From: Raja brachyura
Lineage: Eukaryota
Length of the DNA stretch: 64,000 nucleotides
NCBI GenBank assembly: GCA_963514005.1
Contig: OY740803.1
Location: forward strand, 29,698,001 to 29,762,000
Direction: 5' to 3'
Shown here: piece by piece, positions 15,291 to 61,101 of the stretch
Numbering within the stretch: position 1 is the stretch's first letter
How the letters are laid out: every line of letters begins with the position of its first letter
Position numbers and translations under genes: made by a program
Notes under the pieces: model-generated
Told to the model about the DNA's origin: nothing
Seen by the model: the letters and a program-made list of their open reading frames with translations, nothing else
Databases searched by the model: none

Positions 15291-15503
15291 TTTCTGAATT
15301 TCTTACCTTATTAATTCTGGACTTATCATAACACATAACTGTGGTAAATTAAGCATATTTTGCACATTCACTTAATACTTTTACTTGATTTTATTACCCA
15401 AGACTTTCCTTCAATTGTCAGATCAGCTCAAGGGGGTAATTAAATCTACTGAGATTTCATCCAACTGCTTGAGTATTTCAATTTGACCCAGTAAGATGTA
15501 TTA

Positions 15504-17598: not shown

Positions 17599-18316
17599 TG
17601 GAACTGATTCCAGGCTGGTGTACAGATGTCCTTGATACATCAATATTTAAGCTCCTATTATTACTTTTGTACAGAACCAATTTCTGGGTATTTGAGCACT
17701 GACTGTCAGATCAACTCCTGGTCAGCCTATGAATAAGACAAGAGAGACTGATCCCCAGTGGGTGTCTGACATACAATAGCAGAGCAGATTCGAAGGGCTG
17801 CATGGCCTACTCTTGTCCACTTCTTTATGTCCTTATATAACCATTGGATGACTGCCAATTACTGTTTGGTGTATAGCATTGAAAAGCCACTGATTTCCTG
17901 TCAAGCATAAACACTGAATAAAACTGATTCCAGGCTGGTGTACAGATTCAAAGGAAGGCTAACATCTGGTTGCTATAGGAACAATTATTATCTTTGGGCA
18001 GTCATCAATGGCATGTTCAGTTAAACATGCACTCATCAGCCCAACCTACGACGAACCTTGACTTCTTTCAAGTATAAGTAGCATTTATTATAACTATATC
18101 ACCTTTCCTTTAATTGATAACAAACTGATTGAGAATGGGTAGTCCTTCACAGTATTTGTGATCCTTTGCCAATCAAGTAGTCAAATCATTCTATAAGCTC
18201 AATACTATAGGCATGTCACCGTGCAGTCATTTGCTGAGATTGGAGTACGGTAATCACCGTTGCTCCTGATTCCATTAACCATTGTTTCATCTCTCCTTAG
18301 CTCAACCTTACATGTG

Positions 18317-26450: not shown

Positions 26451-26475
26451 GGTTAATACATGTGATTCAAAGGAT

Positions 26476-26676
26476 GTGTAGGAAGAAACTGCAGATGCTG
26501 ATTTAAATCAAAGGTAGACACAAAACTCAGCGGGTCAGGCAGCATCTCTGGAGAGAAGGAATGGGTGACGTTTCGGGTCGAGTCTGAAGAAGGGTCTTGA
26601 CCCAAAACGTCACCCCTTCCTTCTCTCCAGAGATGCTGCTTGACCCGCTGAGTTACTCCAGCATTTTGTGTCTACC
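26476..26676. mobile_element. Fold-back (inverted) pair of the Penelope-like repeat
   Basis: Minus copy joined directly to a plus copy; 15-bp TSD tgtgattcaaa(g/a)gat at 26461 and 26677. Confidence 0.8.
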
Positions 26677-29600
26677 TGTGATTCAAAAGATCTTGATGTT
26701 TATTGCTACTAGTTTTTCTTCATGTGCTAAAGTAAGTATCTGCTCTTCTCAATCTAAGGGAGTTCCTTAGCTTTGAGAATGAGCGGTTTCTATTCCAGTT
26801 CTCATTGCATCATATAGCATGGGAACAGGCCCTTCAAGCCAACTGAATCAAGATCAAGTCTAGAGTTGCTGCCTGTCCCGCTGAGTTACTCCAGCATTTT
26901 GTGCCCAACCATCAAGAAACCATTTTATTGTTCGCACATTCTCATCAACTCTCCCCAGACTCTATCGCTCACCTACACACCAGGTGCAATTTGCAGCAGC
27001 CAATTAACCTATCATGAGAGAGGAAGCAGGAGCACCCGGAGGCAACTCAGACAGCACCCAATGTCAGGATTGGATCTGGGTCACTGAGGTTGTGAGGCAG
27101 TGGCTCCACCAGCTGGATGGGATAGACAGCCGCAAGGGTAGCAGTGGTCAGAATACCAATGTCGTCATCCTGAGAGTGGGGGACTGATTCATCCTCTGTG
27201 GAACTGCTGTCATTGTTCATTAGTCAGACTAGTGACCTGTTGGTGGACAGACTGCTGCAGGGGTTGTGGTCACCACGAACCCCAGTGGCCGGAGCTCACC
27301 ACTGCTTCCACCAAAGACATGTCTTGGGTAGTTGACTGCCTCTGCTGCTACATAAACAGGGAGCACAGCTGACAAAATTTTGAACTTAAGGTTATCTTCT
27401 TGGTAGATTACCCAAATTTGGGGTCACATTACTGAACTACAGAGCCCAGAACGTCACAATCAAGGAATCATTTGAAGGACTTTACTCTTTATTTTATAGA
27501 ATGGATCTTTGAAAGAGTCCTTGCTTTATATTGACTTTGGAGTGAATTACCATCCAATAATTGGCATTTTCTGAGTCGAGGATATCGAAGGACCTGTCCT
27601 CTTAATGACTTAAATGAGCAGAAAGCAAAAACTTCAAATCACCAGCTTGTCTTGAGGGATTTCTATGAACTCTGTTTGACTTTTGCTGTTTGTACACCTC
27701 AACCAGACAACACCGTAGATTCCTATGAACATATGTGAAAGGCTGGCAATGTCTGGGTGCAGTAATCTGTCCGTCTGTGTTTGCGCATGGGTGTGTGCTA
27801 TGCATGTGTATTGGAGGGGTGATGCAGCATCCCTAATGTTGAATAGTAAGTGGCAGGGTTTAGCTATCTATAAATGTGAGTGTGAGGCGTTGTCTGTGGG
27901 TTGGAGTGTGTGAGATGGGGGTATTATTGGTTTAGTATTGTCATGTGCACTGGGATACAGTGATATATTTTGTTTTGTGCTTTACTCAGGCAACCCGTTC
28001 CGTACATGAGTACATCAGATAGTGAAAAAGAGAAAAAATAGTGTATACTAGGATATAATGTTACCATCAGTCTGAAATTATTATGGGAAGAAACTGCAGA
28101 TGCTGGCTTACACCGAAGATAGACACAAAATGCTGGAGTAACTCAGCGGGACAGGCAGCATCTCTGGAGAGAAGGAACTCAGGAAACTGAGTTGCTCCAG
28201 CATTTTGTGTCTGAAACTATTGTACATTTGTTCAAGTTCTCACCTAGATAATATGTGAAGTTACAATTCCTCTTTCAAACTGAAAACGGAAAGCACCGGA
28301 AGCACTCTGCAGATCAGGCAGCATCTGTGGAAAGAGAAATAAAGTTGATCTTTCAGATTTCAGGCCAAAGGGCCAAATGAATTTCGGTCACTCCTGCACA
28401 TAGAGATGACCTCTTGTCAGCAAATTGCATCCTTTAAATGTACAGGTTGTGCTGAGGTTGGGGCACTCTCCCTAACCGCTCCTCTCACACCGTCCCTTCA
28501 GCCATTGCACGTGGCTTCTACAGAAGGGCTGGTGTTGCCAGCTGAGTAAAATTGATTGGAATTGACAGCTGCTTATGAGGAAATGCTCTGCTACAAAAAT
28601 ACAGCTGCACTGATGTGTCAGGGTTGCAATAGAGTACGATCCAAATGCTCCATCATAAATCAGCGGTAAACTGTGCAACAATGCTTTATCTCCAAGGAGG
28701 TTGTGAATCTCTAGGTTTTGCTTTTTAATTGAATTACTGTCAACCACAGCAACATTGAATTCTCCTTGGGGGCAGTCTGCCCAGTAAATTGTTGCTGGGG
28801 TCCTGATGCTCCTGGGTGTTTGCCATCTCTTCATCAGCCTGAACCTCAAGCAAGAGAGGCTTAACCTTCGTAGGTGTTAAAGCAGAGAAATAGACCATTT
28901 GGCTCATGTAGTACATGCTAACTCCCAGCAAAGCAATCCATCAGTTCGCTGTCACCTACAACTTCTTCAAGAATCTTATGAGAATAATACAGCAGACTGA
29001 TTAGATGGGGTTTTTTTTGCATCCGTCCCATTTCCCTTCCTGTAACACTGTCACCTACAGCATTTTGTTTGTTCTTTTTTTGTGCCATTTACACCTGACG
29101 GAATTCACAGTGGCCAGTTAATATTTGAGATGTGGGAGGAAACTGGGATACCCTGAGGTCACAGAGAGAATGCACAAACTCTGCAAGAAAAGCAGCACAT
29201 GTCACCGTGCTATCCTTTATTAGATTAATCTTCTCACCTGTCCAATGATGGAAAGGTCCCATCAAGAGTGGGCACAAGCACCTGACCCGTGACCATTTGC
29301 CAGGCGAGAGGGAAACTGATCTTATCACAATCATCACAGCAATCATACTCTCGAGAAAAATTTCCACTGAACTGTCCTGGGAACTGTCCTTCTATTGCTC
29401 CTCATTGCTAAAGATCATCTCAGTGGCGTATGAAGAGCAAAACCATTCAAGGAGCACACACGTCTGTTTTTCAATATTTGATTGGTTGACTGTTGAACCC
29501 AAAAGATCTCTCCCCAGTTTGTTAACAAATCCACGAAAGCAAAGCAATTTTTGTTTTGGTTGAATGAACCCTAACCACGATAATAGGCAATGACAAGTCA

Positions 29601-30281: not shown

Positions 30282-32388
30282 CGGTGCAGAGGATGGCATC
30301 CTCACTCCAGTTAGTAAAATCCAGGCCAGGTCCAATGGAGTACTGAGGAAGTGCTACACTGTCATTCAGAAGCTGTACAGTACTGTCAGTTCTGAGACCT
30401 GAGTGCTGCACTGCCACATAGACAATTCTAAAGGAGTGCTGCACTCTCAGATGGGCATTTCAGAGGGAGGGCACTGTCAGGGGTGCAGTGCTGAAATACT
30501 GCTCACTGTCAGATATATAGGAAGTGCTGCATTGTTGGAGATGCAAATTTGAGCAAGAACTGCATTGCTATAAGTGCAGACCAGTTCAATGGTGCTTTAT
30601 TGTCACTGACCAAAAAGCAGCATTTATTGCCCATCCCTAATTTCACTTGAGAAGGAGCTAGTTAGTTACCTTCTTGAATCACTGCAGCCTGTCTGGTGAA
30701 TGTTCTCCCACAGGGCGGTGGGGATGAGAGTTCCAATGTTTTCACCCAATGATGGTGAAAGTACAGTTATATTTCTGAGCATTGCGTTGTGTGTATACCT
30801 TGGAGGGGAACCTGCAGGTGGTGGTGTTGCCATACACCCATTGCCCTTGTACTGCCTGATAGTAGAAGTCATGAGTTTGGGAGGTGCTACTTGAATGGCA
30901 TAATGCAACCAAATGCAATGTAGGCACAAGCAACTGCAGATGCTGGAGCAAGACACAAAGTGTTGGAGGAACTTAGCGAGTCCAACTTAGCTGTGGAGGG
31001 AATGGACAGATGATGTTTCGGGTCGGGCCTAAAGAAAGGTCCCAATCTGAAACATCGCCTGTCATTCCCTCCACATGTGCTGCCCGACCCGCTGAGTTCC
31101 TCCAACACTTTGTGTAAATGCAGTGTATTTTGAAAAAACAATTACTCCAGCCAAAGTTAAAAACAATGCAGCCAGAAAAGTACACTTGGCAGCAATTTGT
31201 TCTGTCAAACAGAAGTCCTTTTTCCCCTTTGCTTCAAATAGACAGTCGTGCTGCTTAAGCCAAACATTCCAGTGTTCTACTTGTTCTGTCGTGTGTCCTC
31301 ATTTGACCCTTCCCCCCCCCCCCCCCCCCAGCCAGCCATCCATCAGATGCATCATTATGTAAGAAGAAAATACATTATGTAGTGGATCCCCTGTAACTAC
31401 TCGCCACGAATCAGAGCATTCACTGCTGCATTATAAAATGAGAGTTATGTCATTGGGGCATATCATTACGGGCCATTGATTTACTGTAGTTGAATAAATC
31501 AAATAGCATTTGATGAAAGCTAGTCTGCTTTGAGTAGTAAATTCCATAAGTATCTCATTCTGTGAGTGCAATACATTTTTACCTATTCTTTAGCAAATTA
31601 TTTATATTTATTTTTTCTCTCGTTGCTCTTTTCAACTTCAAGAATACTTAGCCAATTGAATGCCAGGTAAACTCAAAGACATGGAAATGAGAGAGAAGTG
31701 GTTTTAGAATTGAAGTGATTTAGAATTGAGTAAAGCTCAGAGGACAAATTTCTGGAGTAATTCATCAAGCCGGACAGCATCTCTGAATGTTTTAGATCAG
31801 GACCCTTCTTCAGACTGGACTCAGACGCAGTCTGAAGAAAGGACCCAACCCTAAATGTCATCTATCCATGTACTCCAGAGATGCTGCTTATTGTGCCGAG
31901 TTACTCCAGCACATTGTGTTCAATGCAAGATGAAAGCATCCGCAATTCCCAGTGTCTCGATGGTAAAGCTCAATTGATTTGTAGATATGAAATATTGGGA
32001 GATTCCCAGCATGTGACGGCAATGGGATTCCAAAACTTTTTCGGAATTCTTTAATTAGGTTTCTTTAGGCTTCTTTAAAAATATTTGCAAATAGTTACTT
32101 CAGCAGTTAATTCTTTTTCTCCCTCTCACATCCACTCAGTCTTGATCCTCTCTTTTTATCTTCTCACAAATAAATATTCACCAATTAGAATATTTGCATT
32201 TTTTTTAATTACCAACAGCACAAAAGTGACATCAATCAGATTTTTTCTATTTGAGAAACCTTCTAAATTCAACCCAACTTGCTTCTTTTGCAAGGTTAAA
32301 GAAAAGTGCAATTAAAGTCAGGAAAGACATTCATTTTTCTATCTCTCTTGATGTTTTTTCTAAAATAAAAATAACTCTTACTTAAACA

Positions 32389-33551
32389 TCTATATTACTA
32401 AAAGTTTGATCTTGACCACTTCCTGTTGTTCTGCAGATTGATTTTAGAAAAAACGCTGCCACTTACGGCTGTGATTTTTGGCCATCTCACTCAGAGCCCC
32501 CCTCCGTTGTGCAGGACAAGAGGATTTTTTCCATCAATTAAAAATAAAAGAGTTATTAGTGTTTTTAAAATGTTGAGATTCTCTCTTCTGAAGGCCACGT
32601 CCCTTCCGGAGGGACTATAAAACCCAGAAGTGTTGAGTGCCTCAGTCAGTCTCTACAAGATGGGGGGAGCGAAAGGGTCATGTGTCTCAGTCTGATCTGT
32701 GAATAACACGGAACACATGTCTACTAAACTGTGAGTGTGACCTTGAGTGCCCTTAATGTGATTTGAAAATGAAAATGTGGTTGGTTTGAAGTGAAGCACT
32801 GCAAATGGCTGTTGGTGATGGTTGGTTTGAAGTGAAGCACTGCAAATGGCTGTTGGTGGTGGAAATTTGGTAGCCTTGCACCCTGCTTGAAGTGGCATGA
32901 AATTGCACTTGAATTTGGTAGCCTTGTACCCTGCTTGAAGTGGCATGAAATTGCACTTGAGTTTGGTGGCCTTGCACCCTGTTTGAAGTGGTAGGAAACT
33001 GCACTTGAATTTGGTGGCCTTGCACCCTGCTTGAAGTGGTATGAAACTGCACTTGAACTTGGTGGCCTTGCACCCTGCTTGAAGTGGTATGAAAATGCAC
33101 TTGAGTTTTGTGGACTTGCACCCTGCTTGAAGTGGTATGAAACCGCACTTGAATTTGGTGGCCTTGTACCCTGCTTGAAGTGGTGTGGAACTGCACTTGA
33201 ATTGGGTGGCCTTGCACCCTGCTTGAAATAGTATGAAACTGCATTTGAATTTGGTGGCCTTGCACCCTGCTTGAAATGGAATTTCAAGGAATAGACGTGA
33301 GTCAACTGCCAGCCCACCAGCCGCGCGTGCGCTGCCAGCACATCAAGCTTAAGTGACTGAGCTGCCACCCTCCATTTGGCCCACATTGTCCATACTAACC
33401 CTCTGGAAACCAGTCCCTTCAGCCCACAACACCCATATCAGCGCTCCAGAAAGCCCCCTCCCCCCACTGGCCACCAATATTGGAATTGGTGGAGAGGTGG
33501 AATATTGCGTTGGGGGACCAGCCCTCCCGTGTGAACATGGACTTAGTCTAG
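32389..33551 (+). mobile_element. Non-autonomous Helitron
   Basis: Starts A|TCTATATTACTAAAAG and ends CTAG|T (insertion between A and T, no TSD); 8-bp hairpin CCACCAAT/ATTGGTGG at ~33471-33492; internal minisatellite. Confidence 0.72.
32864..33285. repeat. 48-bp minisatellite, ~9 copies, preceded by a 41-bp duplication (32778-32860)
   Basis: Unit tttggtggccttgcaccctgcttgaagtggtatgaaactgcacttgaa; ccctg recurs at 32881, 32929, 32977 ... 33265. Confidence 0.95.
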
Positions 33552-36050: not shown

Positions 36051-38259
36051 AGATGCAGTGCTAGTTTCAGCAACCTGGACTTATTATTGATGGGTAAAGC
36101 AGATGATGCTTATATATTTGCAAGTTTTTAATACCTTGGATACAGTCTATATGCATTTTGCACAGCCCCTCTATGAACGTAATGGTTTCCTTTGGGTGCT
36201 CCAGTTTCTTTCAATATCTCAAAGGTGTGCTGGAAGGTTAGTTACCTCCTGTAAATCGTCACCAGGTCATAGGAGAATTGGGGGAAGTTGATGTGCATGT
36301 GAGAGAGAACAAATTGGAGGGAAATAAGAAAGATGAGATCAGGAGGAGGCCTTTTGATCCCTCAACCCTCGTATCCCATTCAGTTAGAACAAACATTTTG
36401 ATTCCATTTACTCAGCCTGCTCAATACCATTAACCAACCCTATGTTAGACTAAACCTTTACAAATTACCACGAGTTTATCAGGGATGCCAAGGGACAGCA
36501 GAATGTACAGATGGGTTTCACCAGGATGTGTCTCAGTAGCCTGCAAACATACTCGGAAACAGTCTTTCCATCAGATTGTCACTTTTCCCCCTCCACACCA
36601 TGCATTGTGTGAGAAGAAAGCTTTCTGGGGGAAATCATCACCTTTAAATCCTACACTGCACCACCACCACCTCTCCCCTTAACCAAGCTTTGAATACCTC
36701 TTCTGAACTACAGGAGCTGCATGTCCTGATGTTTCACTTGCAAGTATCACTCAGGAAACGTTTTGAAAACAAATCGTTTCATGGATGAATTAATTTCCTT
36801 TTCAGGAACTTCCTGCAACTTATTTTACATCCAATTCTCATAACTTTCCACTTGACCTAAAAGTAGAAATTGCTGGGAACATTACACGTGTCGGACAAAG
36901 TTGGTGGAAAGGGAACCAGTTAATGTGTCCGGGTCCAGGATCCTTCTCAGCACTGATCTCTATCCACAGATGTAATTAGGTACATGCCCAGAGCTGGGAG
37001 AAAGTCAGATACTCTGATGTGGATAAACATGGTCATAGTGAAATGCTTCAAATATACCTCAGATCCACATCAAACATGGCAACTGGGAGCACAGTGGTTG
37101 TGAGGAAACATTTTGATTGAAGATTGCCATCTTTGTATTCCATAATAAGGGACAGGTTATACCCGGTGGGACAGAAGAACCCGGCGTGAAGGACAGCATG
37201 GGATGCTGCGTAACTTTGTCGGTACCCTTTATGTGCTGACTCTGCATACCTAGGGTCAGCAAAGCAAAGAATATCACTGTGTTTTGTCACATGTGACAAT
37301 AAAGCATCATTCATTCAGTTTGTGGTCAAGGTCACACAAGCTCCACAGTGCAGCAGAAAGCTTTGGGAGCAACAGATGTTCATTTGAGCAAACAGTGTCT
37401 GGCCACTATGGGTTTTATGATATTACCTTAAATAAGTGAAAGAGAAGATAAACTACAGGATATGACAGTGTTCCTGAAATCTGGCTATGTTTTAAAGAAC
37501 TCCAAAAGAAAATAAACCAATAGCTTGCTATTCACACATTTCTCTCAAAAAGCAAATATTATGGGCTCCCTTAAGTTAAGAAGCTGGGCACATTTCCTCC
37601 CTGCCATCCTCAATTATCCCCATTCTTTTTCACACACAATTCTTTCATAGAAGCTAATTCATCAGCCTAAGCTTACCAAGTGGTCTCCTGCTTTTAAGTT
37701 TGAGAGCCTTGAGGGATTTCTCCAGAATGAAAAGTACGGTCGATAAATAGTGTGTTATGAAAGCATAATGGGGGTGTCTCTTAGCTTCCCTTTGAAAATT
37801 AATTCGGCCATAAAATATGTCCTCTTCCAAATTGCTGCCTAATGCAAAATGAACAGGGCAGTAAAAATGTGCATTGAAGCTCTTAGTGTTTAACTGCAAG
37901 TCTCTGGTGAGCTTTGATTAACAGTTAAAGTAAATCAGAAATGACAACCTACAACTACCCCACTGGCTTGAATCTGCACTGTACCACAGACTCTGCAGAC
38001 ACCATTTGGTTTGGCAGTAAACCACACAGATGAGTTGGTTGTGGGTTTATCACGTCATCTGTGCTGAACTAGCTGAACTTAGCAAAGGTAATAGTCTAGG
38101 AACAAAATGGGCAGCTCCTTGTAAATGGGCAAGGTGATTTTACAGGCATTAATGATCCTTTGGTGTTGGAAAATGTGGTTTGGCCTACATCGAGGATAAG
38201 AAGTAATCTTAGTGTAGAGTTGATGATCACACTGGAATGCCACCCAACTAAGCTTCATT

Positions 38260-39061: not shown

Positions 39062-39379
39062 TGGCCCGGTCCCACTGTACGAGTTCATTCAAATGCTCTC
39101 CCGAGTTTAAAAAAAATCAAACTCCTGGTAAGCATGTGAAATGAACGTAGCGGGTACGTCGGAGCTCGGGGACATCACTTAGCGGCTCGTAACACTAACG
39201 GCAGGTACTCGGGAAACGCGGTAAGCTGGGGAAGACTCATGAAGATTTTTCAACATGTTGAAAAATGTCCACGAGAGCCCCGAGTACCGGCAAGCGGCCA
39301 TTACCGTAAATCTCCGAGTTCGAATCAGGGCAAACTTGGGATAACTCTTTGAATTAACTTGTACAGTGGGACAAGGCTG
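39062..39379. mobile_element. PIF/Harbinger-like MITE, largely palindromic
   Basis: TIRs GTCCCACTGTACGAGTTCATTCAA ... TTGAATTAACTTGTACAGTGGGAC; central palindrome atttttcaacatgttgaaaaat. Confidence 0.8.
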
Positions 39380-41436
39380 TTAGGAAGACCTTCACCAATA
39401 TTTACTCTCAGCGGATTTCATCCAAAGAGAGTGAATGATCTTCTTCTATTCGATACCATGAAGGAGTCAGGAGCAGATCAACACATGCATGAGAGTATCA
39501 CTACCTGCAAGGTCCCTGTTGAATCTTTACACCCTCATCTTAAAATCTGCCTTTTAGTTTTCGACTCTTCCACCCTGAGGAAGTGTCTGTGGCTATTCAT
39601 CTTATATATGCATTATTTTCAATACTTCCTTTATGCCACCTCTCAGTCTCCTACACTCCAGGAGAAAAAAAGACGCAGTCTATTTATCCTTTCCTTACAG
39701 CTCGATCCTTTCAGATCCAGCAACGTCCCTGTAAATCCTTTTTGCACCCTTTCCAGTTTGCGCCAGGTATATGTGGCAACATCATGGATAGGCAAACCAA
39801 GCATACCCAGTCTCTGAAACAGCCATCGCTGGTCAGTATGTCCATGTTCAGGAAGCTTCCTATTTCTTCCTAATGAAGCTGACTTAGTTTTAGGCTTCCG
39901 TGCATTAATTTGATATTTTGGTGTTTCCTCCTTTTACAAACCTCAACAATGTGATTTGGGGTTTCCAAGCTGTTTGTCTTTTGGCCTATATTGTGCATTT
40001 ACGTATTTCTGGAAGAAGTGGAGGTACAAGGAGGGATCAGAATAAACCAGAATACCCCCTACAACGTCCCCCTTTCCTTAAGTACTTTGGTTGGTGTCCT
40101 TTCCATTTGCAGAGGTCCTAGAAATGATTATTAATCATTGACATGCAGACTCAGATATGATTGCCAATCACAAGATGATTGTTTTGCTTGCAGAAAGTGC
40201 TTTTTCACAAATAACATAACACCATCTATAAGATGCAGAAAGACGTGTCACATCAGTATAGAAACCAAGCATGTGATGAGTTGAAGAAAGACTCCGCTTC
40301 GTTAGGCTCCCACCTAACCAAAAAGAAAAACAAATGCAACAAAAATATGCTAAAAGCACATCATTAAATACTCATCCTCCTCAGCTGCCATTATGAAACA
40401 AGAGTATTTTGAAAGTAAATTAAAACCAAGAGACTTGTATGTGTAAATCACAGTGTGGGATGTTCTGTAAAAGTAACAATTTGGAAATAACGCAAATTAA
40501 TGGAAATGCTTCCACAGGAAAGCTTTATTGCGTCAAGAGATGCTTGATATTAAATTTGGATTATATAGTTCAACTGTTTCAGCAGAGCTATTTTCATGTC
40601 ATTTTGATTTGGAGTAAGGTTTCTTAACATTTTAAAACATGTTTGAAATGTCATTATGTTTACAATTGCCTTGGGATTACATCCCATAGCTGTTATTGCT
40701 GTTTTATTGTGCAGCATCTATGTGCAAAACAAAATGTTTTGCTTAAATATTGCGATTGTGAGTCAATTTAAAATCCATTCAACAAAAAAATAAATAGTTT
40801 TATTCTGGTCACTGACATTTCATTAAATTACTGTATTAAATCTCTCCTTCCAGTCATATAATATGTATGGCCAAAATTTAGGGACACAAACATATATTCA
40901 ACTATGCACATTTGCTCGCTCGCTCGCTCGCTCACATATATTTTCATGCAAAAACACATATCTCCACAAACTTGCCTAAGAATCACATACTCAGAAACAG
41001 ATGTAAATAAACACATACGCAAAATGGTATGTGTGAGTTAAACAAGGAAGTTAATGAATACACTTCTATTCTCCTTCAAAAGGCAACAGCTTTTGTCAGC
41101 TCTTCAAATGGATTGATTCTCAGTCAAAGGGACCATGTGAAAAGCCCTTGAGACTCATGAACCCAATCTGAATTCCACATATGCAAGTGACACTTCCCTT
41201 TAACTTCTGAAGGTTTTAGGCTGAGAACTTGGATTTCACCCACTTTCCATGTGTGAAGTGGATACTGTTATGCTGTAGTCCATAAAAAGTGTTTGTTTAA
41301 TTAGCTAAGTTTGAACATCCTTGCTTTAAAAACTTGCAAATATATAAGCATCATCTGCTTTACCCATCAATAAATATGGTCCTGTCCCCATTGCATGATC
41401 AGAGGAAGATTATTAATTGTATCAATGCTGGTCTTG

Positions 41437-42071
41437 TATAGGAGAGAACTGCAGATGCTGGTTTAAACCGAAGATAGACACAAAATGCTGGAGTAACTCA
41501 GCGGAACAGGCAGCATCTCTGGAGAGAAGGAAGGGGTGACGTTTCAGGTCTTGAAACAGTTGGAGCAACAGTTGCCCAATTATTAATCTTTTAGTTACTC
41601 AAAGTCTAACAAATGACAGCTTGTGTCTTTGAGCTGAAAAATCTCCATCCTTAATAACAGGAAATAGATAAAGGAAATCACTTTGACAGATTAGCTGATA
41701 AATAAATGCATAGCAGTTGCAATCAAATCCTTACAATTGCCAGAGAGCCTTCTGTTCCTGTGATTGCTACTGATGGAAACAGATATAAAAGTGATTATGT
41801 ATCCCCCTGATATCTTCACAGTCTGCCACAAAGAGAAATCTAATCTGTACAAACTGGTGAGTTGAACTGTATCCAGAACAGTATTGGCAGCAGAAACCAC
41901 TGTCACTTCAGTGTTGCATTGGATTTGTCAAAGCTCAGGTGTGATAAGATTAGAGTAAAGGAAGAAAGGAATTAGAACTGAAGAAGGATCTTGACCCGAA
42001 ACTTCATCCATTCCTTCTCTCCAGAGATGCTGCCTGTCCCGCTGAGGTACTCCAGCATTTTGTGTCTATCG
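41437..42071 (+). mobile_element. Composite Penelope-like insertion carrying ~400 bp of transduced genomic DNA
   Basis: Inverted repeat copy (41437-41552), unique segment (41560-41975), direct copy (41976-42070); 15-bp TSD tcaatgct(g/a)gtcttg at 41422 and 42072. Confidence 0.8.
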
Positions 42072-44301
42072 TCAATGCTAGTCTTGACCTTTCACCTTGA
42101 GGGACTGCTGCATCAAGTAGAAAACCAATTCACCAGTCTCACTGACCTGGAGTTTACTTCCTCCAATCAACCCGAGTGTGAGCAAAGATTGAAGGGAATT
42201 ATTTCAGCCCAATTGAATTTGATTAGAACTTCTTTTCTGTCAACCCATAACTTTTTTGTCTCCTCCTCAAACTCACATCCGTCAGAGTGACTGAAATATC
42301 CCTGGGATTGAATCACATGATGTCCCACCATATTCCTTACTATATAGTCAGTGCCACTAAACCAGAGGATGGGTGGGAAATATAACAGGAGGCTCGTTGA
42401 CAATAAACGAAACTGAACTGATTTGATATTGCCTGCCTTTGCCACTCACCACCATTAATTGAGGATGTGGCTCGAAAAGCATTGAAAGCATTAATAATGC
42501 ATTATTCTGCTGCTGACATCCTGATACTGATCATCAGAAATAGAAGCAGCAGCAGGACATTCCACACCTGGTGATTGTTTCACCATTCGGTAAAATAATG
42601 GCTGATTTTTTACCTCAGCTACTTTCCTGAACTAACCCTAAATCCTGTGTTTTCCTTGATAAATAAAAAAACTATCAATCTCTGTCATGAATAATCTCTG
42701 CAACTGAGCCTCCACAGCTCCAATTCACTCTGTTTTAAGATTTTCTTCTTGTCTCTGTCCCTTATTTTGAGGCCATAGGTTCTGGATACGCCATGCAAAG
42801 AAAAAATCAACTCCGTGTCAAGCCCTGTACTAATTCTGTATGTATTAATGAGATACACTCTTCATTGTTGGGTTTTTCTAAACTCGGGCCCACAGGCCCA
42901 AGCATCTCAATTTTTCCTCATACAATAAACCTACCAATTATGGAATTAATCTGGTGAACTTTTTCTACAGTATCTCTTTTGCAAGCATATCCTTATGATT
43001 AAAGCCCATTACCAGGGTAGGGGTGGTGAGATGCACTCTACGTCTTCTTCTGCAACATCTGGCAATTTCTTGCAAAAGAAGCACCTAGAAATTAAAAAGT
43101 TTGGTTGTAAGCTAAATTAATTATGTGTACGGAATAGGTGAGAATTAGTAGAAGGACCATTTGGGTATGAGTGAACCCTTTGTCCCAATCTGAGGAACAC
43201 AGTATAATCAGCAGCACTTTATTTCTTTCTACCTTGAAGCAGGAGCATGGTGGGTTCCTGTCTCAGTGGTTTTCACACTATAGTTAATGATTTTGGTTAG
43301 CATGGAATTTAGTTTCTCTTTACCTTCCTGCCAATTGCAAGGAAACATTGCAACAGCCAGTAGAAACTTGGTCAGAGCTTTGTGCACTCTCTGGGAAATT
43401 ACTTTTGTCAAGACTGTAATCAGGAGCCACCAAGGTGAATTTACATCTCTTCCTAGTCCCCTTTTGAGTAGGCTTTCCTAGGGCTACATCATGGAGATTG
43501 CTGAAGCTTACCTTTAAATCAGTTGTTTCTCTCCCAACAGAAATTGAGTTGAACTTGTTTCAATGTCATACATAAAGATATCAAGCTTTTAGTATGGTGA
43601 GAATTTATAGAGGGAAAACTGAGGATTGCACTCATTCTCCTGTTTGGGTTTTGGTTAGTGAATGGGATTGAAATGAGAGTGAGATTTGTTCACTGACATT
43701 TTGGAGTAATTCTTAGTTTTAGTGTTAGGATTTATTTCAGTTAGTTTAGTTGACTTTAGTTTATTATTGTCACGCGTACTGAGGCACAATGAAAAGCTTG
43801 TGTTTGCATGCTATCCAGTCAAGGAAATTACTTTACATTAATGCAATCAATCTATCCGCAGTGAACAGATTCATTTGCAGGGTGTGGAGACCTCAGGAAA
43901 TATAGTTATGTTTTGTCCAAACGCCCCAATTACTCCTGAACAACTGAGGTAGGAAAGAGTCAGTTGCACTAGTGGGTATGGTGTCACAGATAGCCAGACT
44001 GGGTAAACATGACTTAAGCAAACCAGGTTTGTGTTTTATAATACAATCCTGTAGTTTCATGATCACCATTACACACACAATTGATTTATTTCATTTAGAT
44101 TTATTTTATTAATTGAATTTAAATTTCCCAACTGCCATGGTGGGATTCAAACTCTTGACTCAAGATCAGTGGTCTAGAATTCTGGCTGCTGATTAATAAC
44201 TTAATAACTTTTATGAAAGTTTAATATTTATCATTGAGCATTAAATTCATTTTATTTATCAACCAGTTCTCCACTACATTACTGGTGGTTATTTAATATT
44301 A

Positions 44302-44607
44302 TTAGTTTAGTTTAGATCCAGCACGGAAACAGGCCCTTCAGCTCACTGAGTCCGCACCGAGCAGCGATCCCCGAACGTTAACACTATTCTACACACACAC
44401 AAGGAACAATTTTACATTATCCCAAGCGCATTGACCTAGAAACCTGTACGTCTTTGGAGTGTGTGAGGAAACCAAAGATCGTGGAGAAAACCCACACAAT
44501 TACAGGGAGAACGTACAAACTCCGTAGAGACAGCACCTATAGTCGGGATCGAACCCGGGTATCCGACGCTATAAGCGCTGTAAGGCAGCAACTCTACCGC
44601 TGAGCCA
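44302..44607 (-). mobile_element. HE1-like SINE
   Basis: Reverse complement of the same family, with B box and (AAACT)n tail. Confidence 0.9.
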
Positions 44608-46970
44608 TTCTACATATCAAGCACTAGATTCATTTAGCTGGACTATTCATCTAACTCCTGTCTAGCCGAAGTTATTATATAAACTGTACACATCAATTAA
44701 TTCTGGACATCTACCTATAAACCATCCGAACTCCTTGATTAAATTCCATCTGGCTTTATGTTTGCCAAATAATATGAGGCCTTTGGTCTTGAAATGTTTT
44801 GTCAGGCAGTAGTTTCTGATGAGGCAGAGCATGTAAAATTGTCACGCAGGGATACATCAATTGACCTATGAATCCTGTCAGGTGGTCACAGTTTTGGGGG
44901 CATCATAAAGCAAGGTTTTCCCTTCTCCAAGCACAGGTAATTTCAAGGAAGAAACAAAAAAAATCTTGCTTGCAGCAGTACCACAGATATGCAGACTAAC
45001 ACAAATGCCCAAAAAAGGGGAAACAGGGTCATTATGAAGAACATAAAGCTGTAAACTTGCTTCTACAACTCTTCACTACATGTGGCTCCCTTTCAACTCC
45101 AGAATAAGTGGTAATCCCCTCCATATTTTCAGAGCCAGAAGGATTGACAAATATGACATCATCATATCTTAAAACTTATTTTAAGAGAAAATATGATCTG
45201 TACAGGAAATGTAATTATTATTGTTTTATATTTCCTACTAAGGCAATGCAGATATAGATGTAACAATCATTCATGAAGGGCCTTTGGTTTATTTTAGCCA
45301 CATAACTTGAATATCGCAGATTATGTGGGGAGAGTGTTGAGAATGGGGACAAGTACAAGGGATATATTTCCCCTGGGTTAAATGCATGTCAAGTCTGCTG
45401 TTTTGGACAACAGAAGATTGCATCAGCTTCAAAATGGCATCAAGAGAAAGTGGCTTTCAAAAAAATCAATGCAAGGAACGGATAATGTGAAGGATCACAG
45501 ATTTTTATTGAGGTTGACAGGTACTATGTTTTATTTCTTCCTTTCAGGGAAATTTGTGAAAAGCAGAGAGCCAATTAATTCCCTGGTAAATCCCTGTTCA
45601 GACAAGTATGAGCTCAAAGACTGGATTGCACAAGTTTGACGTGGGATTAGTGATGTCTTTGGTCATTCTTCACCGCAAGGTCATCATTAAAGTTACAAAC
45701 AGAAAGAACCATTGAGCCCATTGAAACTCACTACTCAATATACATATGTGTCTCTGCATCTGGCTATTTATCATATGTTACTATAATGATGGCATCTTCA
45801 CTTCCTTGTGAATGGTTTATTACAGATAATTCTCACCCATTGAGAGAATCGTTTTATGTTACAAATATTTCCTTGAAAATATATCAGCCTTGGTTTTACA
45901 ATCCTGCCTTAAATGGGAATGCTTTGAAACAACTTTGATAATTCCATTGTTCTATATTTGATATAATTTAATGACTTCAACTCCCACCATTCTTATTACT
46001 ACACTGTAGAATTTGGCTCCTACAATTATTCCTTCTTGTCATTGTTAGATTTTCTTTGTTCAGTTTTCACTGTTATTTCTTTTTTAGCTATTATTGATGC
46101 CTATTGCTCTAGCCCAGACCTTGGAATGATTCCCAATGTCAACTGTTAATGGTATTTGGCCAATGGCTTCTATTAAATGAGATAAATCATCATTACATTA
46201 AATAAAGGTTTACCAAGTCTGCTTACTTCCATTTGGAAGTTCAGTAGTGTCCAATAACTTACAGTGAAAACTAATGCTCCATAAATTCCAAACCTAGTTT
46301 GCTTCAGAATCCTGGGATGCATGTCATCTGGCTCAGGTGATTTGTGACCATCTTCACATCCACAGTATTAAGTTCTTCTGTTGTTAATCATACAGGGTTT
46401 TGTGACATAAAATGACTTGTTTGAAATAACATGGAGAGTGATTAATGGTGTGTCTGTTGTGTCCGCGCCAAGCTGGGGACGATTTCAAGTTGAGTCAGAG
46501 TTTAGTAGTTACAATGGAATGGGAAGGGTAAAGAGCTATCAAGTGTTTACTGGAATATGGTAACAGTGAGATTTAGAGCCCAGGTACATCTCCTAACACC
46601 GTGTAAACACCATTTCTCTGAAATACAACACACTCCTATGAGCCCATAATTAATACCGACATGGACAGAAATCGCCTGTAACAAACTTATACAGACAGAG
46701 AGTTGCAATCCAAAAACAATACAAGTAGATAAAATGCTATCTATTTTAAAAATAGGTCAATTCGTAGTTTGTTTTGGCATTCTTTGGCTTGTGGACATTA
46801 CTTGCAAAGCCAGCATTTGCTGCCTGTCCCCAGGTCATGACTAATTAATGGCCATCTTCCAGCTTGAACAACAGCAGACCTGCTATTGTTATTGGTTTAT
46901 TATTGCCACGAGTACCAAGAAACTGAGAAAAACGTTGTTCAGTGCAATCCAGTCAAATCATGCTGTGCAG

Positions 46971-47294
46971 GGCTGCACAGTGGCGCAGCAGTAGATTTGT
47001 TGCCTTGCAGCACTTGCAGTGCCAGAGGTCCGGGTTCGATCCCGATTAAGGGTGCGGTCTGGTACGGAGTTTGTACGTTCTCCCCATGACCACGTGGGTT
47101 TTCTCTGAGATATTCGGTTTCATCACACACTCCCACAAAGACGTACAGGAATGTAGGTAAATTGGCTTAGTAAATGTAAAAATTATCCCTAGTGTGTGTA
47201 GGATATTGTCAATATGCGGGGATCGCTGGTCGGCTCGGACCCGACAGACCAAAGGACCTGTTTCCGCACTGTATCACTAAACTAAACTAAACTA
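46971..47294 (+). mobile_element. HE1-like SINE nested in a Rex-like 3' tail
   Basis: Head tggcgcagcagtaga, B box ggttcgatcc, V-domain, (actaa)n tail. Confidence 0.9.
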
Positions 47295-47620
47295 ATCAGG
47301 TCATACACAAGTATAATAGGTAGTACAAAGAGAAAAATGCCAGAGTGCAGAATACAATGTTACAGTGTTAGATCATTACTACATTACCAAAAAATAACAA
47401 GGCCATAAAGAGGTAGCTTGAGAGATTGGTACCATACTCTTAGCTTATGAGAGGTCCATCAGTGGTCTGATAACAGCGGGGAAAAAGCAGTTCCTGAATC
47501 TGGTTGCACGCTCTTTTTACCTTACAAGAGAGGGGAGAAGAGGGAATGACTGGATTGTGAATGATCTTCAATTACTTTTGGTGCTTTTCCAAGGCAACGT
47601 GAAGTGTAGATGGGGTCGAT

Positions 47621-47645
47621 GGGGGGGGGGGGGGGGGGGGGGGGG
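47621..47645. repeat. Poly-G tract (25 nt) in a Rex-like fragment
   Basis: Uninterrupted G run; further C runs at ~22571-22584 and ~31312-31329. Confidence 0.9.
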
Positions 47646-48644
47646 TGGTGGCTGGTTAGTGCGATGGAGTGGTTACAAGTTTTGGTGGACTTGGGCAGAG
47701 CTGTCGCCAAACCAAGTTATAATCCATCCCAACAGTTCAGGATCTCAGGGCAGTGCTGTGGTAGAAGTGTGATGGCATTTTTACCTACTGCATTGGCTGA
47801 TTTCTGCTATCATGCAACCTGAGAAGATATAATGTAAGACAGTATTTAGGTTGACAGGAAGAGATCTAGAAGATATCCTTCCCCAAAAGACCTTGGTGAG
47901 TCATTGTGGTGTAATGACAATCAGGCAACGTTAATGGTAATATTCAACGGATGCCAGTTTAGATTTATTAAACTCAGTTTATAAGTTTTTCATGGTGTGA
48001 AGATGACTCATGACCTCTGCATTCGGGTCATGTTACTCCCCTGTACCGGTCTTCCTATGAATGTCTGGGTCTGGACGTCTAAGCAGCTGGAGTAAGTGGC
48101 ACATGGATAAATTTGACCAAACCAAGTGGAATTGTGCAATGCCTGTTTACACTTGAATAACTGTACCATCTGCAAAAAACAAAATTCTGCAGATTCTGAA
48201 AGTCTGAAATAACAACAAAATATTATGGAAACATTCAATAGGTTAAGCAGCATCTGTGGAAAGAGAAACAGCTAATGTTTTCAGTCCAAGACAAAATGTT
48301 TCAAGACCTGACATTTTAACTCAGTTTCCCTCTGCACAGATGCCACCTGACCTGCTGAATATTTCCAGCATTTTCTAATCATGTTCATAATTGACTTTAA
48401 TGGTACAAAATGTTTGTCAGTGTGAAACTGCCGGCTGATCTGATACAGAATCAGTGTAACAAGAGGGCAGTGAAGCCCATGTAATTATAACCCACTTTGA
48501 ATTTATAAAGACAGGAAAATAAAGGGCAGAATCGGAATTTAATGACACAGCAATCAGAAATGTAAGCTCAAATAACTCAGCAAATTACACTGAGTGAGAC
48601 TGGACTTGGTCTACAAACTACTTTAGAGAATCTACGCGGCTGAG

Positions 48645-49205
48645 TATAGTCATAGAGTCACAGAGTGATACAGTGTGGAAACAGGCCCTTCAGCCCACAC
48701 CAGCCAACATGTCCCAGCTACACTAGTCCCATCTGCCTGCGCTTGGTTCATATCCTTCAAAACCTGTCCTATCCATGGACCTGCCTAACTGTTTCTTAAA
48801 CGTTGGTTATTCCCAGCTTCAACTACCTGCTCTGGCATCTTGTTCCATACACCCACCACCCTTTGTGTGAAAAAGGTACCCCTCAGATTCCCCTTTTCTG
48901 GGCAAGCGACTCTGTCCATCTACCCGATCTATTCCTCTCATGATTTTATACACCTCTATAAGATCACCCCTCATCCTCCTGACCTCCCAACTTCTATACT
49001 TAATACTCTGACTGATGAAGGCTATTGTGCCAAAAGATTTTTTGACCACCTTATCTATCTGCAACTCGACCTTCAAGGAACCATGCACCTGTATCTCCTA
49101 GAGCCCTCTGCTCTAAAACACAACCCAGAGGCCTACCATTCACTGTGTAAGTCCTGCCCTTGTTAGACGTCCCAAAATGCATCACCTCACACTTATCTGT
49201 ATACA
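48645..49205 (-). mobile_element. CR1 LINE 3' fragment with internal deletions
   Basis: ORF 48819-49088 (DKVVKKSFG...RMRGDLIEVYKIMRGIDRVD); tail repeat catagagt near 48650. Confidence 0.85.
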
Positions 49206-49530
49206 GTAGCTGAAATTGTGCAAACTAGTCTTGAAGAGACCATCATGGTGGTGACTGCATTAAACTCGGAGCTGATCACTTTCACAGGGAAGGAACCCGA
49301 ATGTGGAAGATGCTGAAAATTAGGTCCCATCATGTCACAGAGGGAAATGTCTGCTCCATATAACAGAATTTTTAGCTGTAGGTCATTTCATTACATGCAT
49401 GCTTCCGGATCAGAAAAATTCCATTCAAAGCCAACCAGCTGAAGCTAGGCTGAAAGCCTGGTGTTATCCTGAGGGAATGCTGCAGGTCGAGATGCCTTCA
49501 TTCTGACAAAGAGTAGGGCAGTTTATTCCC

Positions 49531-49622
49531 GGTGTCTGCGTGTTTTTGCCTGTGTGTCTGTGTGTCTGCGTGTGTCTGTCTGCGTGTGTCCGTGTGTGTC
49601 TGTTTGTGTCTGTCTGTGTGTG
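49531..49622. repeat. Imperfect (GT)/(GTCT) microsatellite
   Basis: Directly visible tgtgtctg repeats; poly-C run nearby at ~49785-49820. Confidence 0.9.
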
Positions 49623-50159
49623 GGGGGGAGGTGAAGAGGGGATGGGGGGGAGAAAGCTGGGAGAGGTTCCAAAGCCTGGAAGCTAATAGGCGGAAAGCGG
49701 TTTTTGATAGCCAGATGATTAGACAAAAGGTCAGATTTGAAGCCTCACATCTTCTATCTTTTCATCTCTGTTCTCCCATATAGCTCCCCCCACCCCCCCC
49801 CCCCCCCCCCCCACCCCCCCAATCAGTCTGACGAAGTGTCCAAACCCAATACGTCACCTATCCATGTTCTCCAGAGATGCTGTCTGACCCGCTGAGTTAC
49901 TCTGTCACTTCTATGACTAATTTTGTAAATTAGCTGTAAATCTGCAGTTCCTTATTTCCATTTTATTCCTGGTGTCCCGTTCAGTGTTTATCCCTCAACC
50001 AACACAGATAAATAGCTTTTTTTTTCCCTTGTGTTTGTGGGATTAGCCTTATGCAAATCGGCCACCATGTTTACCACCAGGTTGGCCATACTTCAAACTG
50101 ACCACTAATTAAGTCCTCTGGGACATCCTGAAGTTAGGAAACGGATGATATAAATCTAA

Positions 50160-50669
50160 GATGGACACAAAATGCTGGAGTACCTCAGCGGGACAGGCAG
50201 CATCTCTGGAGAGAAGGAATGGGTGACGTTTCGGGTCGAGACCCTTCTTCAGATCGAATTCCTTTCTCCCTTTACAATCTTATCACACCTGAGCTTTGAC
50301 AAAGCCAATGCAACACTGAAGTGACTGTGGTTTCTGCTGCCAATACTGTTCTGGGTACAGTTCAACTCACCAGTTTGTACAGATTAGCTTTCTCTTTGTG
50401 GCAAACTGTGATGATATCATGAGTAATCATAATCATTTTTATATCTGCTCCTGTCAGTAGCAGTCACGGGAACAGAAGGCTCTCTGGCAATTGTAAGGAT
50501 TTGATTGCAACTGCTATGAATTTATTTATCAGCTAATCTATCAAAAGGATTTCCTTTATCTATTTCCTGCTATTAAGGATAGAGATTTTTCAGCTCAAAG
50601 ACACAAGCTGTAATTCATTAGACTTTGAAAGTAACTAAAAGATTAATAATTGGACAACCGTTAATCCAA
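50160..50669 (-). repeat. Inverted copy (probable donor) of 41560-42070
   Basis: The reverse complement aligns continuously with 41560-42070, with long identical blocks such as acagttcaactcaccagtttgtacagattag, and shares the gagtacctcagc variant of the repeat. Confidence 0.92.
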
Positions 50670-52689: not shown

Positions 52690-52712
52690 TTTCCTTAACT
52701 CCCCTCTTTTAC
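52690..52712 (+). promoter_or_regulatory. U12-type (minor spliceosome) branch point and AC 3' splice site
   Basis: TTTCCTTAAC (52690-52699) matches the U12 branch consensus and lies ~13 nt before AC (52711-52712), directly ahead of the exon; there is no AG at the junction. AT-AC introns are known in voltage-gated Ca/Na channel genes. Confidence 0.93.
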
Positions 52713-52824
52713 ATGGTTTGAACGGATGAGTATGTTGGTCATCTTGCTGAACTGTGTCACCCTTGGAATGTTCCAGCCCTGCCAGGACAGCACCTGCGAG
52801 TTAGAACGTTGCAAAATTCTGAAG
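52713..52824 (+). CDS. Internal coding exon of a T-type (Cav3) voltage-gated calcium channel alpha-1 subunit, domain I S1 and S1-S2 loop (CACNA1G/H/I family; paralog unresolved)
   Basis: 112-bp exon; after 1 nt it reads [37 protein letters not shown], matching the Cav3 IS1 motif [23 protein letters not shown]. Preceded by U12 branch point TTCCTTAAC and an AC acceptor; followed by donor GTAAGC at 52825. Ends in phase 0, compatible with the next exon. Confidence 0.96.
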
Positions 52825-60967: not shown

Positions 60968-61101
60968 GGATTTGATGATTTCATCTTTGCATTCTTTGCT
61001 GTGGAGATGATTGCCAAGATGATTGCGCTGGGTATCTTTGGACCAAAATGTTACCTCGGTGACACTTGGAACCGTCTCGATTTTTTCATTGTTGTTGCTG
61101 G
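60968..61101 (+). CDS. Next coding exon of the same Cav3 channel, domain I S2-S3
   Basis: 134-bp exon after acceptor tctgtcttttAG; reads [44 protein letters not shown](G), with the diagnostic [15 protein letters not shown] motif; donor GTAAGT at 61102; in frame with 52713-52824. Confidence 0.97.

Follow-up and report, generated by a model that had tools for sequence, protein, structure and literature searches.

The inverted duplication and the insertion at 41.4 kb

The window, meaning the whole 64-kb stretch of DNA analysed here, contains an inverted duplication in which 41560-42071 on the plus strand is an inverted copy of 50159-50669. The two copies are 91.4% identical (44 of 513 alignment columns differ), slightly above the 85-90% estimated in the original prediction. 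About 95 bp of the duplication belong to a ~100-130-bp repeat, present in about 25 copies per 64 kb. The other ~415 bp have one partner only in the window (blastn depth 1), and nhmmer with this segment returned just the two known copies below E 0.9, in agreement with the earlier expectation of two copies as far as these 64 kb are concerned. Searches of protein databases as a proxy for copy number gave two hits, one (P0122) resting chiefly on the repeat part and the other, with a bacterial Cna B protein, due to chance; because one query that included the high-copy repeat's own frame was still blank, blank searches of this kind are uninformative on copy number.

Differences between the copies are spread diffusely (24 transitions, 16 transversions), and at two sites (41610-11 and 41774-75) CA in one copy stands against TG in the other, as expected where a single ancestral CpG has decayed independently in the two copies. 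Both features argue against misassembly and, together with the 8.6% divergence and the target site duplication (TSD) described below, leave an assembly artefact or chance with a negligible share of the probability. Polarised transitions within the segment number 10 in each lineage, divergence per lineage is ~4.3%, and the mutation spectrum is symmetric between the copies, which gives no copying direction. With the rate of ~1e-3 per site per My given for SINEs of the elephant shark (PMC5499810), such a divergence would correspond to an age of very roughly 40 My.

The likely host of both loci is a plus-strand T-type calcium-channel (Cav3) gene, probably of a cartilaginous fish; they would lie in one of its introns, and two of its exons are recognisable (Table 1). 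The upstream one is preceded by a U12-type branch point (52691) and an AC acceptor, as read from the sequence. The intron is probably intron 1, although a motif scan of the window did not find the first Cav3 exon. With the host gene on the plus strand, any RNA template for the capture would be antisense to the host pre-mRNA, in line with the antisense transcript of the original prediction.

Table 1. Features of the two loci, the host gene and other local duplications (window positions)
Feature	Position	Strand	Basis
Left TSD copy, 15 bp	41422..41436	+	14/15 identical to 42072-42086
Inverted arm, 5'-truncated, long ~35-nt tail, hammerhead-core repeat	41437..41550	-	positions 16-127 of 130-nt reference copy
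Inner junction, 6-bp foldback hairpin, truncated head of left arm	41541..41557	.	read from sequence
Captured segment, AT-rich, non-coding, ~415 bp	41560..41977	+	copy of 50254-50669; 381/420 columns identical
Direct arm, hammerhead core, short 3' end, private variant shared with donor	41978..42071	+	reference positions 1-96
Right TSD copy, 15 bp	42072..42086	+	14/15 match to left copy
Probable donor repeat, solo, intact minimal hammerhead core	50151..50253	-	reference positions 1-102; core motif intact
Probable native 5' flank of donor repeat, source of captured segment	50254..50669	-	alignment
Cav3 coding exon	52713..52824	+	Pfam Ion_trans E 0.0049; PDB Cav3.1/3.2/3.3 E 2e-18 to 1e-14
Next Cav3 exon	60968..61101	+	95% identity, full coverage, Callorhinchus milii and Chiloscyllium plagiosum proteins; also Crotalus tigris
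Local two-copy match, inverted, 48/48 bp	36084-36131 / 41326-41373		beside CR1-like LINE fragment
Local two-copy match, direct, 26/26 bp	17602-17627 / 17922-17947		beside CR1-like LINE fragment

The structure at 41.4 kb is confirmed: an inverted arm, the captured segment and a direct repeat are all bounded by a TSD, so that cargo and element lie within one TSD, as in RNA-mediated 5' transduction. The extra inverted repeat and the 15-bp TSD had both been foreseen, and none of 20,000 random placements scored as high as this TSD. The arms can be told apart by the 'tacctcagc' variant (G at alignment column 91), which is exclusive to the direct arm and the 50.2-kb repeat (two of 18 aligned repeat copies); the original prediction had noted it as shared by the two. 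The inverted arm carries T at this column and, counted over core and tail, departs from the young consensus five times; the direct arm differs from that consensus at 5/93 positions, one of them common to the donor. Because the donor's private variant is absent from the inverted arm, this arm appears to derive from a different template than the other. Left-arm divergence (~5%), the TSD (one mismatch in 15) and the ~4.3% per lineage give no sign of two ages. At the inner junction, homology to the donor begins within ~10 bp of the foldback hairpin (41557-41567; boundary uncertain), and the hairpin may have arisen by snap-back synthesis. In RNA, the two arms would pair with each other (73 pairs).

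Between the two loci, ~8.6 kb apart, 50.2 kb is the likelier source and 41.4 kb the target. The 50.2-kb repeat starts at the family's usual 5' boundary, and its flank is absent from the 14 other intact-headed copies (6-16 of 40 positions match). At the 3' end, the 41-kb copy stops at the short site (96) and the donor extends to 102, with nine more tail-like nucleotides (50151-50159), seven of which match, a level equalled by 0.14% of the 9-mers in the window. The best TSD-like match round 50160-50669 is 8/9 (50158-66 / 50669-77), which 12.8% of random placements reach (p 0.13, not significant). Private changes in the repeat part number four in the 41-kb copy and one in the donor, at 50163, within this 8/9 direct repeat. 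Continuity of an older repeat across 50669, looked for as proof of the donor, was not found in the window. The proposal that the 50.2-kb repeat interrupts an old SINE-like tail was likewise not confirmed, Rfam and ARAGORN being blank there and a second copy absent from the window; the older sequence may resemble a Deu-domain SINE.

As to its content, the cargo is non-coding intronic DNA with no sign of function, and it contains no intron. A reading as coding DNA or as a remnant of a Penelope-like element (PLE) ORF was rejected, since Pfam gave only sub-threshold matches over all 12 frames, the best being Herpes_UL31 (E 0.008, 15.6 bits against a cut-off of 25). For the segment, Rfam, ARAGORN and Pfam on the frames were negative as to a tRNA head, an RNA family and an ORF; the seven sub-threshold Rfam matches (six miRNA-type hairpins or low-complexity, one scaRNA) all lie away from both copies.

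A repeat family of Penelope-type anatomy

The repeat forms seven head-to-head pairs in the window, the arrangement being that of an inverted 5'-truncated copy at the 5' end. TSD-like repeats surround five of the seven (scores 16, 13, 12, 10 and 9; none at the 21.8- and 31.8-kb pairs), to be compared with a null of n=2985, in which 67 reached at least 9 and two at least 12. Head-to-head arms are thus the normal insertion product of the family. In four of the seven pairs, a long tail on the inverted arm is combined with a short end on the direct arm, and in three pairs other than the 41-kb one the left arm is likewise truncated, at reference positions 13-21. The 3' ends are bimodal, ~35 nt apart: among 24 copies aligned to the long reference, eight end at 123-130, 15 at 85-102 and one at 57. 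Head-to-head arms and two 3'-end sites are PLE hallmarks, and together they support a Penelope-type anatomy, as originally proposed. Indeed, PLE insertions have been reported with an inverted 5'-truncated copy at the 5' end, an optional 30-40-bp tail at one end only, two internal start sites for reverse transcription, with which the bimodal ends agree, and dispensable hammerhead (HHR) cleavage (Craig et al., 2021, PMC8557442; Frangieh et al., 2024, PMC11167929). In contrast to the elements of these papers, the repeat here has no linked ORF, and flank capture is not described in the portions of the two papers available. A PLE ORF (telomerase-like RT plus GIY-YIG endonuclease) was not found in the window (Pfam on 367 ORFs; motif scan).

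The donor and the 9.7- and 30.2-kb copies retain an intact minimal hammerhead motif by the PMC4209133 descriptor (core, extra base after A9, G10.1-C11.1, palindromic CG, UH site). This minimal type I core, with its palindromic 15.2-16.2 pair, resembles those of PLE pLTRs and retrozymes, which likewise occur mostly as dispersed single motifs (Cervera and de la Pena, 2014, PMC4209133; 10.64898/2026.07.22.740005). Helix I is 1-2 bp in the family and <=1 bp in the donor, 81% of helix cells are paired, a covariation score equalled by 101 of 500 shuffles is not significant, fold z-scores are near 0, and Rfam found no hammerhead match in the window. Non-LTR retrozymes consist of head-to-tail tandem units, each with a type I hammerhead, whereas the copies here are solo or head-to-head and the 18 TRF rows for the window include no tandem array of the repeat; the absence of such units means that this is not an active retrozyme by the definition in 10.64898/2026.07.22.740005.

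Possible templates of the captured segment

The original prediction of flank transduction holds in that there is an insertion at 41.4 kb, marked by its TSD, with 50.2 kb as the likelier source; its RNA template is less secure, since DNA copying, a route absent from that prediction, gives the same product. We put at about even the chance that one target end was primed on ordinary repeat RNA and the other on uncleaved read-through RNA from 50.2 kb. In a single integration event, a Penelope-like RT-endonuclease supplied in trans would have cut the 41.4-kb target on both strands 15 nt apart, a spacing preserved as the TSD. The top-strand end would have primed reverse transcription at the distal start site of ordinary repeat RNA, and synthesis that stopped in hammerhead stem II would give the inverted long-tailed arm seen here. 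For the bottom-strand end, the template would have been a second RNA, a minus-strand transcript that Pol II had continued through the 50.2-kb solo copy, with priming at the proximal, internal start site; five T4+ runs on the minus strand rule against Pol III. On this RNA, synthesis would have continued beyond the usual 5' end of the repeat into ~415 nt of the host flank, presumably because a lone minimal hammerhead does not cut, and the two cDNA ends would have been joined via the short foldback seen at the junction. Indeed, a PLE enzyme cut and extended both strands and was modelled as a dimer, and its main substrate was uncleaved HHR RNA (PMC11167929); for single minimal HHRs no cleavage was seen (PMC4209133). 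That the arms differ at the private variant argues for two templates, and the equal ageing of both lineages (10 vs 10) fits a single copying event. Freely diffusing RNA should insert anywhere in the genome, however, so that the short distance needs an extra assumption; a template still tethered at its own locus might be the easiest account. Furthermore, the antisense transcript and its promoter are hypothetical, the donor is the nearest of seven young copies, as a DNA-homology mechanism predicts, and an independent insertion of the 50-kb segment would be in keeping with the 8/9 repeat near its two ends. Also counted against the two-RNA reading are the four versus one private changes, the lack of a linked PLE ORF and the non-significant helix covariation.

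The main rival, possible but clearly less probable, keeps the same donor and the PLE-made TSD and replaces the read-through RNA with DNA-templated local copying. During integration, or later on breakage of the palindromic arm pair, a repeat-bearing 3' end would have invaded the 50.2-kb copy and extended ~415 nt into its flank in an SDSA-like manner, taking up the donor variant before the product was end-joined to the left arm. This accounts for locality more easily and makes an antisense transcript unnecessary: the probable donor is the nearest young copy, at 8.4 kb (the next is at 11.5 kb), the left arm is truncated where those of plain pairs are, and the window holds two further two-copy local matches, which adjoin CR1-like LINE fragments. 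An SDSA-like route has been proposed for L1 templated insertions (10.1101/2024.08.27.596794), but these usually measured <250 bp and came from within 15 bp of the insertion site. Moreover, the homology on offer would have been just ~95 bp, a conversion tract would have to cover almost the whole arm to include the variant, ~23 nt away from the 3' end, and the divergences do not point to two ages.

It is rather improbable that segment and repeat instead form a ~510-bp non-autonomous element, descended from a master that captured a flank elsewhere earlier, with both loci as independent insertions. Identities among young copies span the observed 91%, the common boundary would follow from a fixed 5' end, the TSD of such an element at 50.2 kb could be the 8/9 repeat, and Chondrichthyan retrozyme consensuses average 363 bp (10.64898/2026.07.22.740005). 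Yet none of the 14 other intact-headed copies carries part of the segment, even though most PLE copies are truncated at the 5' end. Two insertions as close as 8.6 kb would require a very high copy number, the segment lacks tRNA head, RNA family and ORF, and it shows no relationship to the sequence upstream of the 49.8-kb copy, inside that copy's probable TSD. Very unlikely is the reverse direction, in which the 41-kb insert came from a third locus and plus-strand pre-mRNA containing it then templated the 50.2-kb insertion. The 41-kb direct copy is sense to the pre-mRNA, which would be an abundant local template, pairing of the two 41-kb arms could bound a cDNA, and the single private base of the 50-kb copy falls within the 8/9 repeat on either side of it. 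However, that repeat is non-significant, two rare captures close in time plus a stop within ~10 bp of the first junction are required, and the nine extra tail-like bases would be there by chance, a point that weakens if they are target microhomology.

Relation to known captures

Host-DNA capture by PLEs is already published for a rotifer, and the new part here is a traced local donor. In Adineta vaga, unrelated, non-coding or host sequences lie between solo Penelope pLTRs with TSDs, and Pen1 has spacers of host DNA (Arkhipova et al., 2013, PMC3846280). The two cases agree in that pLTR-like repeats enclose sequence foreign to the element, an inverted pLTR stands on the 5' side, one TSD surrounds the entire insertion, and an element ORF is missing, with mobilisation in trans. 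In the rotifer, the NRPS cargo has a direct pLTR on either side and an inverted pLTR in addition, and the empty allele is on record; here a vertebrate ~100-130-bp repeat has a single direct arm, the flank 5' of a solo copy forms the cargo and the probable donor is 8.6 kb away, a local donor not being described for those events in the available part of PMC3846280. Schistosoma has opposite-strand hammerhead pairs 100-700 bp apart (PMC4209133; 10.64898/2026.07.22.740005). As in L1/SVA 5' transduction, upstream sequence would have been brought by read-through into an intronic element; as in twin priming, ends primed on different RNAs would yield opposite orientations; and as in L1 templated insertions, nearby genomic DNA is copied into the insertion, at a distance of kilobases here rather than bases (PMC13174262; 10.1101/2024.08.27.596794). 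Unlike L1/SVA, poly(A) is absent, start sites are internal and the arms overlap in sequence.

The suggestion of a general route for shuffling host sequence was unsupported in the window. Only the 41.4-kb pair, one of seven, has a long spacer with a traceable source, and nine of ten solo copies lack a convincing distant TSD that could betray further transductions. The tenth, an older copy at 49.8 kb, reached a distant-TSD score of 12 (5 of 300 null scans as high, ~0.16 over ten tests); the source of the sequence it encloses was not found in the window, and its likeness to the captured segment was matched by 66 and 302 of 500 shuffles.

Little is settled about how PLEs transpose, in particular about the template RNA, the formation of inverted arms and the reason introns are kept. 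Arms of separable origin at 41.4 kb argue for two templates per insertion, not foldback of one. A broader idea, which we regard as speculative and on balance unlikely, is that PLE RT in cartilaginous fishes loads on nascent chromatin-tethered RNA at solo repeats, primes internally and inserts within kilobases. If so, each of the very many ~100-bp solo copies, whichever strand it is on, would offer a means of duplicating the DNA upstream of it locally and in inverted form. Intron retention by PLEs would follow from the same reliance on unprocessed nuclear RNA, and the distribution of donor-to-target distances would be a genomic test. A single locus that moves non-coding intronic DNA, by a capture already in print, is of moderate interest alone; at the copy density of this family, even rare flank capture could give many events genome-wide, which could suffice to tell RNA from DNA templating by the distances and strands of the donors.

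An inverted duplication anchored in a Penelope-type repeat

Comparison of the window with itself yielded a single long two-copy match, in which 41.5–42.1 kb is an inverted copy of 50.2–50.7 kb, with 44 of 513 alignment columns differing (91.4% identity). The match consists of a ~415-bp segment, for which neither blastn nor nhmmer found a third copy in the window, and a final ~95 bp that belong to a hammerhead-core, Penelope-type (PLE) repeat with 25 listed copies in the window. Only these two, among 18 aligned copies, carry a T-to-G variant within the repeat. An inverted repeat arm stands before the copy at 41.4 kb, and a TSD identical at 14 of 15 positions, a score equalled in 0 of 20,000 random placements, encloses arm and copy together. 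The original prediction of an inverted copy with a unique ~400-bp segment, a shared repeat variant, a 5′ inverted repeat and a 15-bp TSD is thus borne out. Misassembly, which it had named as a possible refutation, is unlikely, since the differences are scattered along the whole duplicated copy and the copies show CA versus TG at two sites, so that both have aged separately. Six of the 44 differences are packed into 16 bp, which suggests a single complex change instead of separate point mutations.

In its 5′ part the repeat contains a minimal hammerhead core, which agrees with the descriptor of Penelope terminal repeat (pLTR) motifs (excerpt of PMC4209133); covariation of the hammerhead helices in the repeat alignment was equalled by 101 of 500 shuffles, and Rfam gave no hammerhead match in the window. 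The repeat forms seven head-to-head pairs, five of them with TSD-like repeats (scores 9–16; of 2985 random pairs, 67 reach 9 and two reach 12). Its 3′ ends are bimodal (eight long, 15 short and one outlier among 24 copies), and in four of seven pairs the long tail is on the inverted truncated arm and the short end on the direct arm. PLEs similarly have an inverted truncated copy and an optional 30–40-bp tail at one end only (excerpt of PMC8557442), a tail whose origin was traced to RT starting at two internal sites; the PLE enzyme cut and extended both DNA strands, with uncleaved HHR RNA as its main substrate (excerpt of PMC11167929). Insertions of the repeat look like PLE insertions in arm pairs and tails, and to this extent the Penelope/hammerhead assignment stands; no linked PLE ORF was found in the window, so that membership rests on anatomy. 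A tandem retrozyme was rejected for this window, which holds no tandem array of the repeat. Since head-to-head pairs are the usual product, the 41.4-kb insert is an ordinary pair whose arms are set apart by an additional 415 bp. Of the six further pairs, four have TSD-like repeats reaching a few bases into the ends of the repeat, and in the 26.5-kb pair two variants are common to both arms, unlike in the 41.4-kb pair.

Probable donor and origin of the captured segment

The TSD around the insert marks the segment as foreign at 41.4 kb. Furthermore, the 50.2-kb repeat includes 6–9 nt more of the family tail than the 41-kb copy does, with 7 of 9 extra bases matching (as good in 0.14% of window 9-mers), although target microhomology could have supplied these bases instead. 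Polarised transitions (10 versus 10 in the segment, 4 versus 0 in the repeat) give no direction but are consistent with a single copying event. Together, TSD and longer tail make 50.2 kb, the predicted native site, the likely donor; against this stands an 8/9 direct repeat whose copies lie close to either end of the 50-kb segment, a match that is non-significant (equalled by 12.8% of random placements). Copying from 41.4 to 50.2 kb is very improbable. The sequence at 49.4–50.16 kb presumably resembles a Deu-domain SINE.

In none of its 12 frames does the segment give a credible coding match, and it has neither a tRNA head nor an Rfam family. The 40 nt upstream of the donor match those of 14 other intact-headed copies (the 42.0-kb copy left out) at only 6–16 positions, with a flank common to none, and sequence upstream of an older, probably TSD-bounded copy at 49.8 kb is unrelated to the segment. 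The donor repeat begins at the usual 5′ boundary of the family. Together, these features point to host flank rather than part of the element, and a longer subfamily, in which segment and repeat form one element, appears improbable. Protein-database proxies for segment copy number were blank, as for the repeat itself, or returned mainly repeat matches. The older copy and 285 bp upstream, comprising a GT microsatellite and a G-rich then C-rich tract, weakly inverted (10/500 shuffles), are bounded by a 14/15 direct repeat (chance ~0.16 after ten tests) and are probably one insertion into old SINE-like sequence.

Templates of the insertion

The left arm is without the donor variant and has a tail absent from the donor, so each arm was copied from a template of its own. 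Our best reading, which we hold at about even chances, is that each cut end primed its own RNA, one being a read-through from 50.2 kb. A 15-nt staggered cut at 41.4 kb would provide the ends; the first would copy ordinary repeat RNA, and the second a minus-strand read-through RNA across 50.2 kb. This RNA would stay uncleaved, because a lone minimal hammerhead with helix I of ≤1 bp should not cut, and RT would continue past the repeat into the flank. A 6-bp foldback where arm and segment meet marks the join, at which the two cDNA ends would have come together. This reading is weak in that it requires a template that is antisense to the host gene and a Pol II product (it has five T4+ runs), and an insertion 8.6 kb from the home locus. 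Bolder still, and unlikely, would be a reading in which PLEs as a rule insert locally, from nascent RNA that is still tethered.

The demands for an antisense Pol II template and for its insertion so near home disappear if copying was DNA-templated, with a repeat-bearing end invading the 50.2-kb copy, the nearest of seven young copies, and extending into its flank. A similar route has been proposed for L1 templated insertions (excerpt of 10.1101/2024.08.27.596794), and two short two-copy matches adjoining LINE fragments suggest that templated copying occurs locally in this region. The homology is short, however, and a conversion tract would be needed over most of the arm; we regard this route as a tentative alternative. 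Of the predicted reverse transcription of an antisense RNA ~8 kb away, the distance holds and any RNA template would be antisense to the host pre-mRNA; DNA copying rivals the RNA template. In the longer of the two matches, 48 bp separate the end of one copy from the TSD to its right, and the other follows a LINE fragment that we take to be CR1-like; its perfect identity suggests a younger insertion, templated locally. The shorter, at the 5′ end of a minus-strand LINE (15.4–17.6 kb), is possibly a templated junction insert.

[quoted passage not shown] L1 is known to give rise to 5′ transductions and to twin-primed chimeras (excerpt of PMC13174262), and a further preprint contributes nothing specific (excerpt of 10.1101/2024.12.14.628481). 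The present case is real and well marked; new are two arms of demonstrably separate origin and, probably, capture of DNA from the 5′ side of a solo ~100-bp copy, with the donor 8.6 kb away. Our literature search, thin for subscription papers and repeat databases, found no published flank capture by this repeat in cartilaginous fishes and no published local donor for any PLE capture. The proposed general route for shuffling host sequence is not upheld by one traced event among seven pairs and 10 solo copies; with the repeat this dense, even infrequent capture could still yield many events.

Host gene and other elements

A Pfam scan covered 367 ORFs defined stop to stop: two added ones and 365 of the 378 non-repeat ORFs with at least 48 aa, the other 13 being LINE-overlapping or microsatellite ORFs. 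Besides LINE RT and weak chance matches, it gave a single lead, at 52.7 kb, which matches solved T-type calcium channels (Cav3; E 2e-18). Over this and the next exon, proteins of Callorhinchus milii and Chiloscyllium plagiosum are the best two of 120 listed, by 1–2 residues, which makes a cartilaginous fish the likely source. A motif scan found no Cav3 exon in the window upstream of 52713, so both duplicated copies most likely sit in the first intron, >52 kb long. Relative to the pre-mRNA of this plus-strand gene, the 50.2-kb repeat is antisense and the 41.5–42.1-kb copy sense. The splice signals before the exon imply an AT-AC intron of >52 kb; this gene family is known to have AT-AC introns. 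Elsewhere, three of four short elements with inverted ends have similar termini and are MITE-like, and 10.0–10.5 kb is CpG-rich.

Positions of features in the window
Feature	Position	Strand	Remark
TSD	41422-41436 / 42072-42086
Left inverted arm	41437-41550
Foldback	41541-41557
Duplicated stretch	41560-42071 / 50669-50159	+ / -
Difference cluster	41800-41815 / 50412-50427
Older repeat copy	49822-49960		within 49522-49976
Further head-to-head pairs	5682-5819, 21803-21944, 26457-26691, 28070-28221, 30911-31127, 31744-31919
48/48-bp match	36084-36131 / 41326-41373		inverted, 5.2 kb apart
26/26-bp match	17602-17627 / 17922-17947		direct, 320 bp apart
U12-type branch point, AC acceptor	52691-52712
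Cav3 coding exon	52713-52824	+	preceded by U12-type branch point and AC acceptor
Next Cav3 exon	60968-61101	+	protein match
MITE-like elements	10089-10569, 12179-12385, 39069-39372		inverted ends
Short element	7991-8074		inverted ends
Decayed LINE	15446-17482	-	295-aa RT frame (Pfam RVT_1, E 6e-17)
Minisatellite	32864-33279		48-bp unit, 8.7 copies, 90% matches; open frames on minus strand
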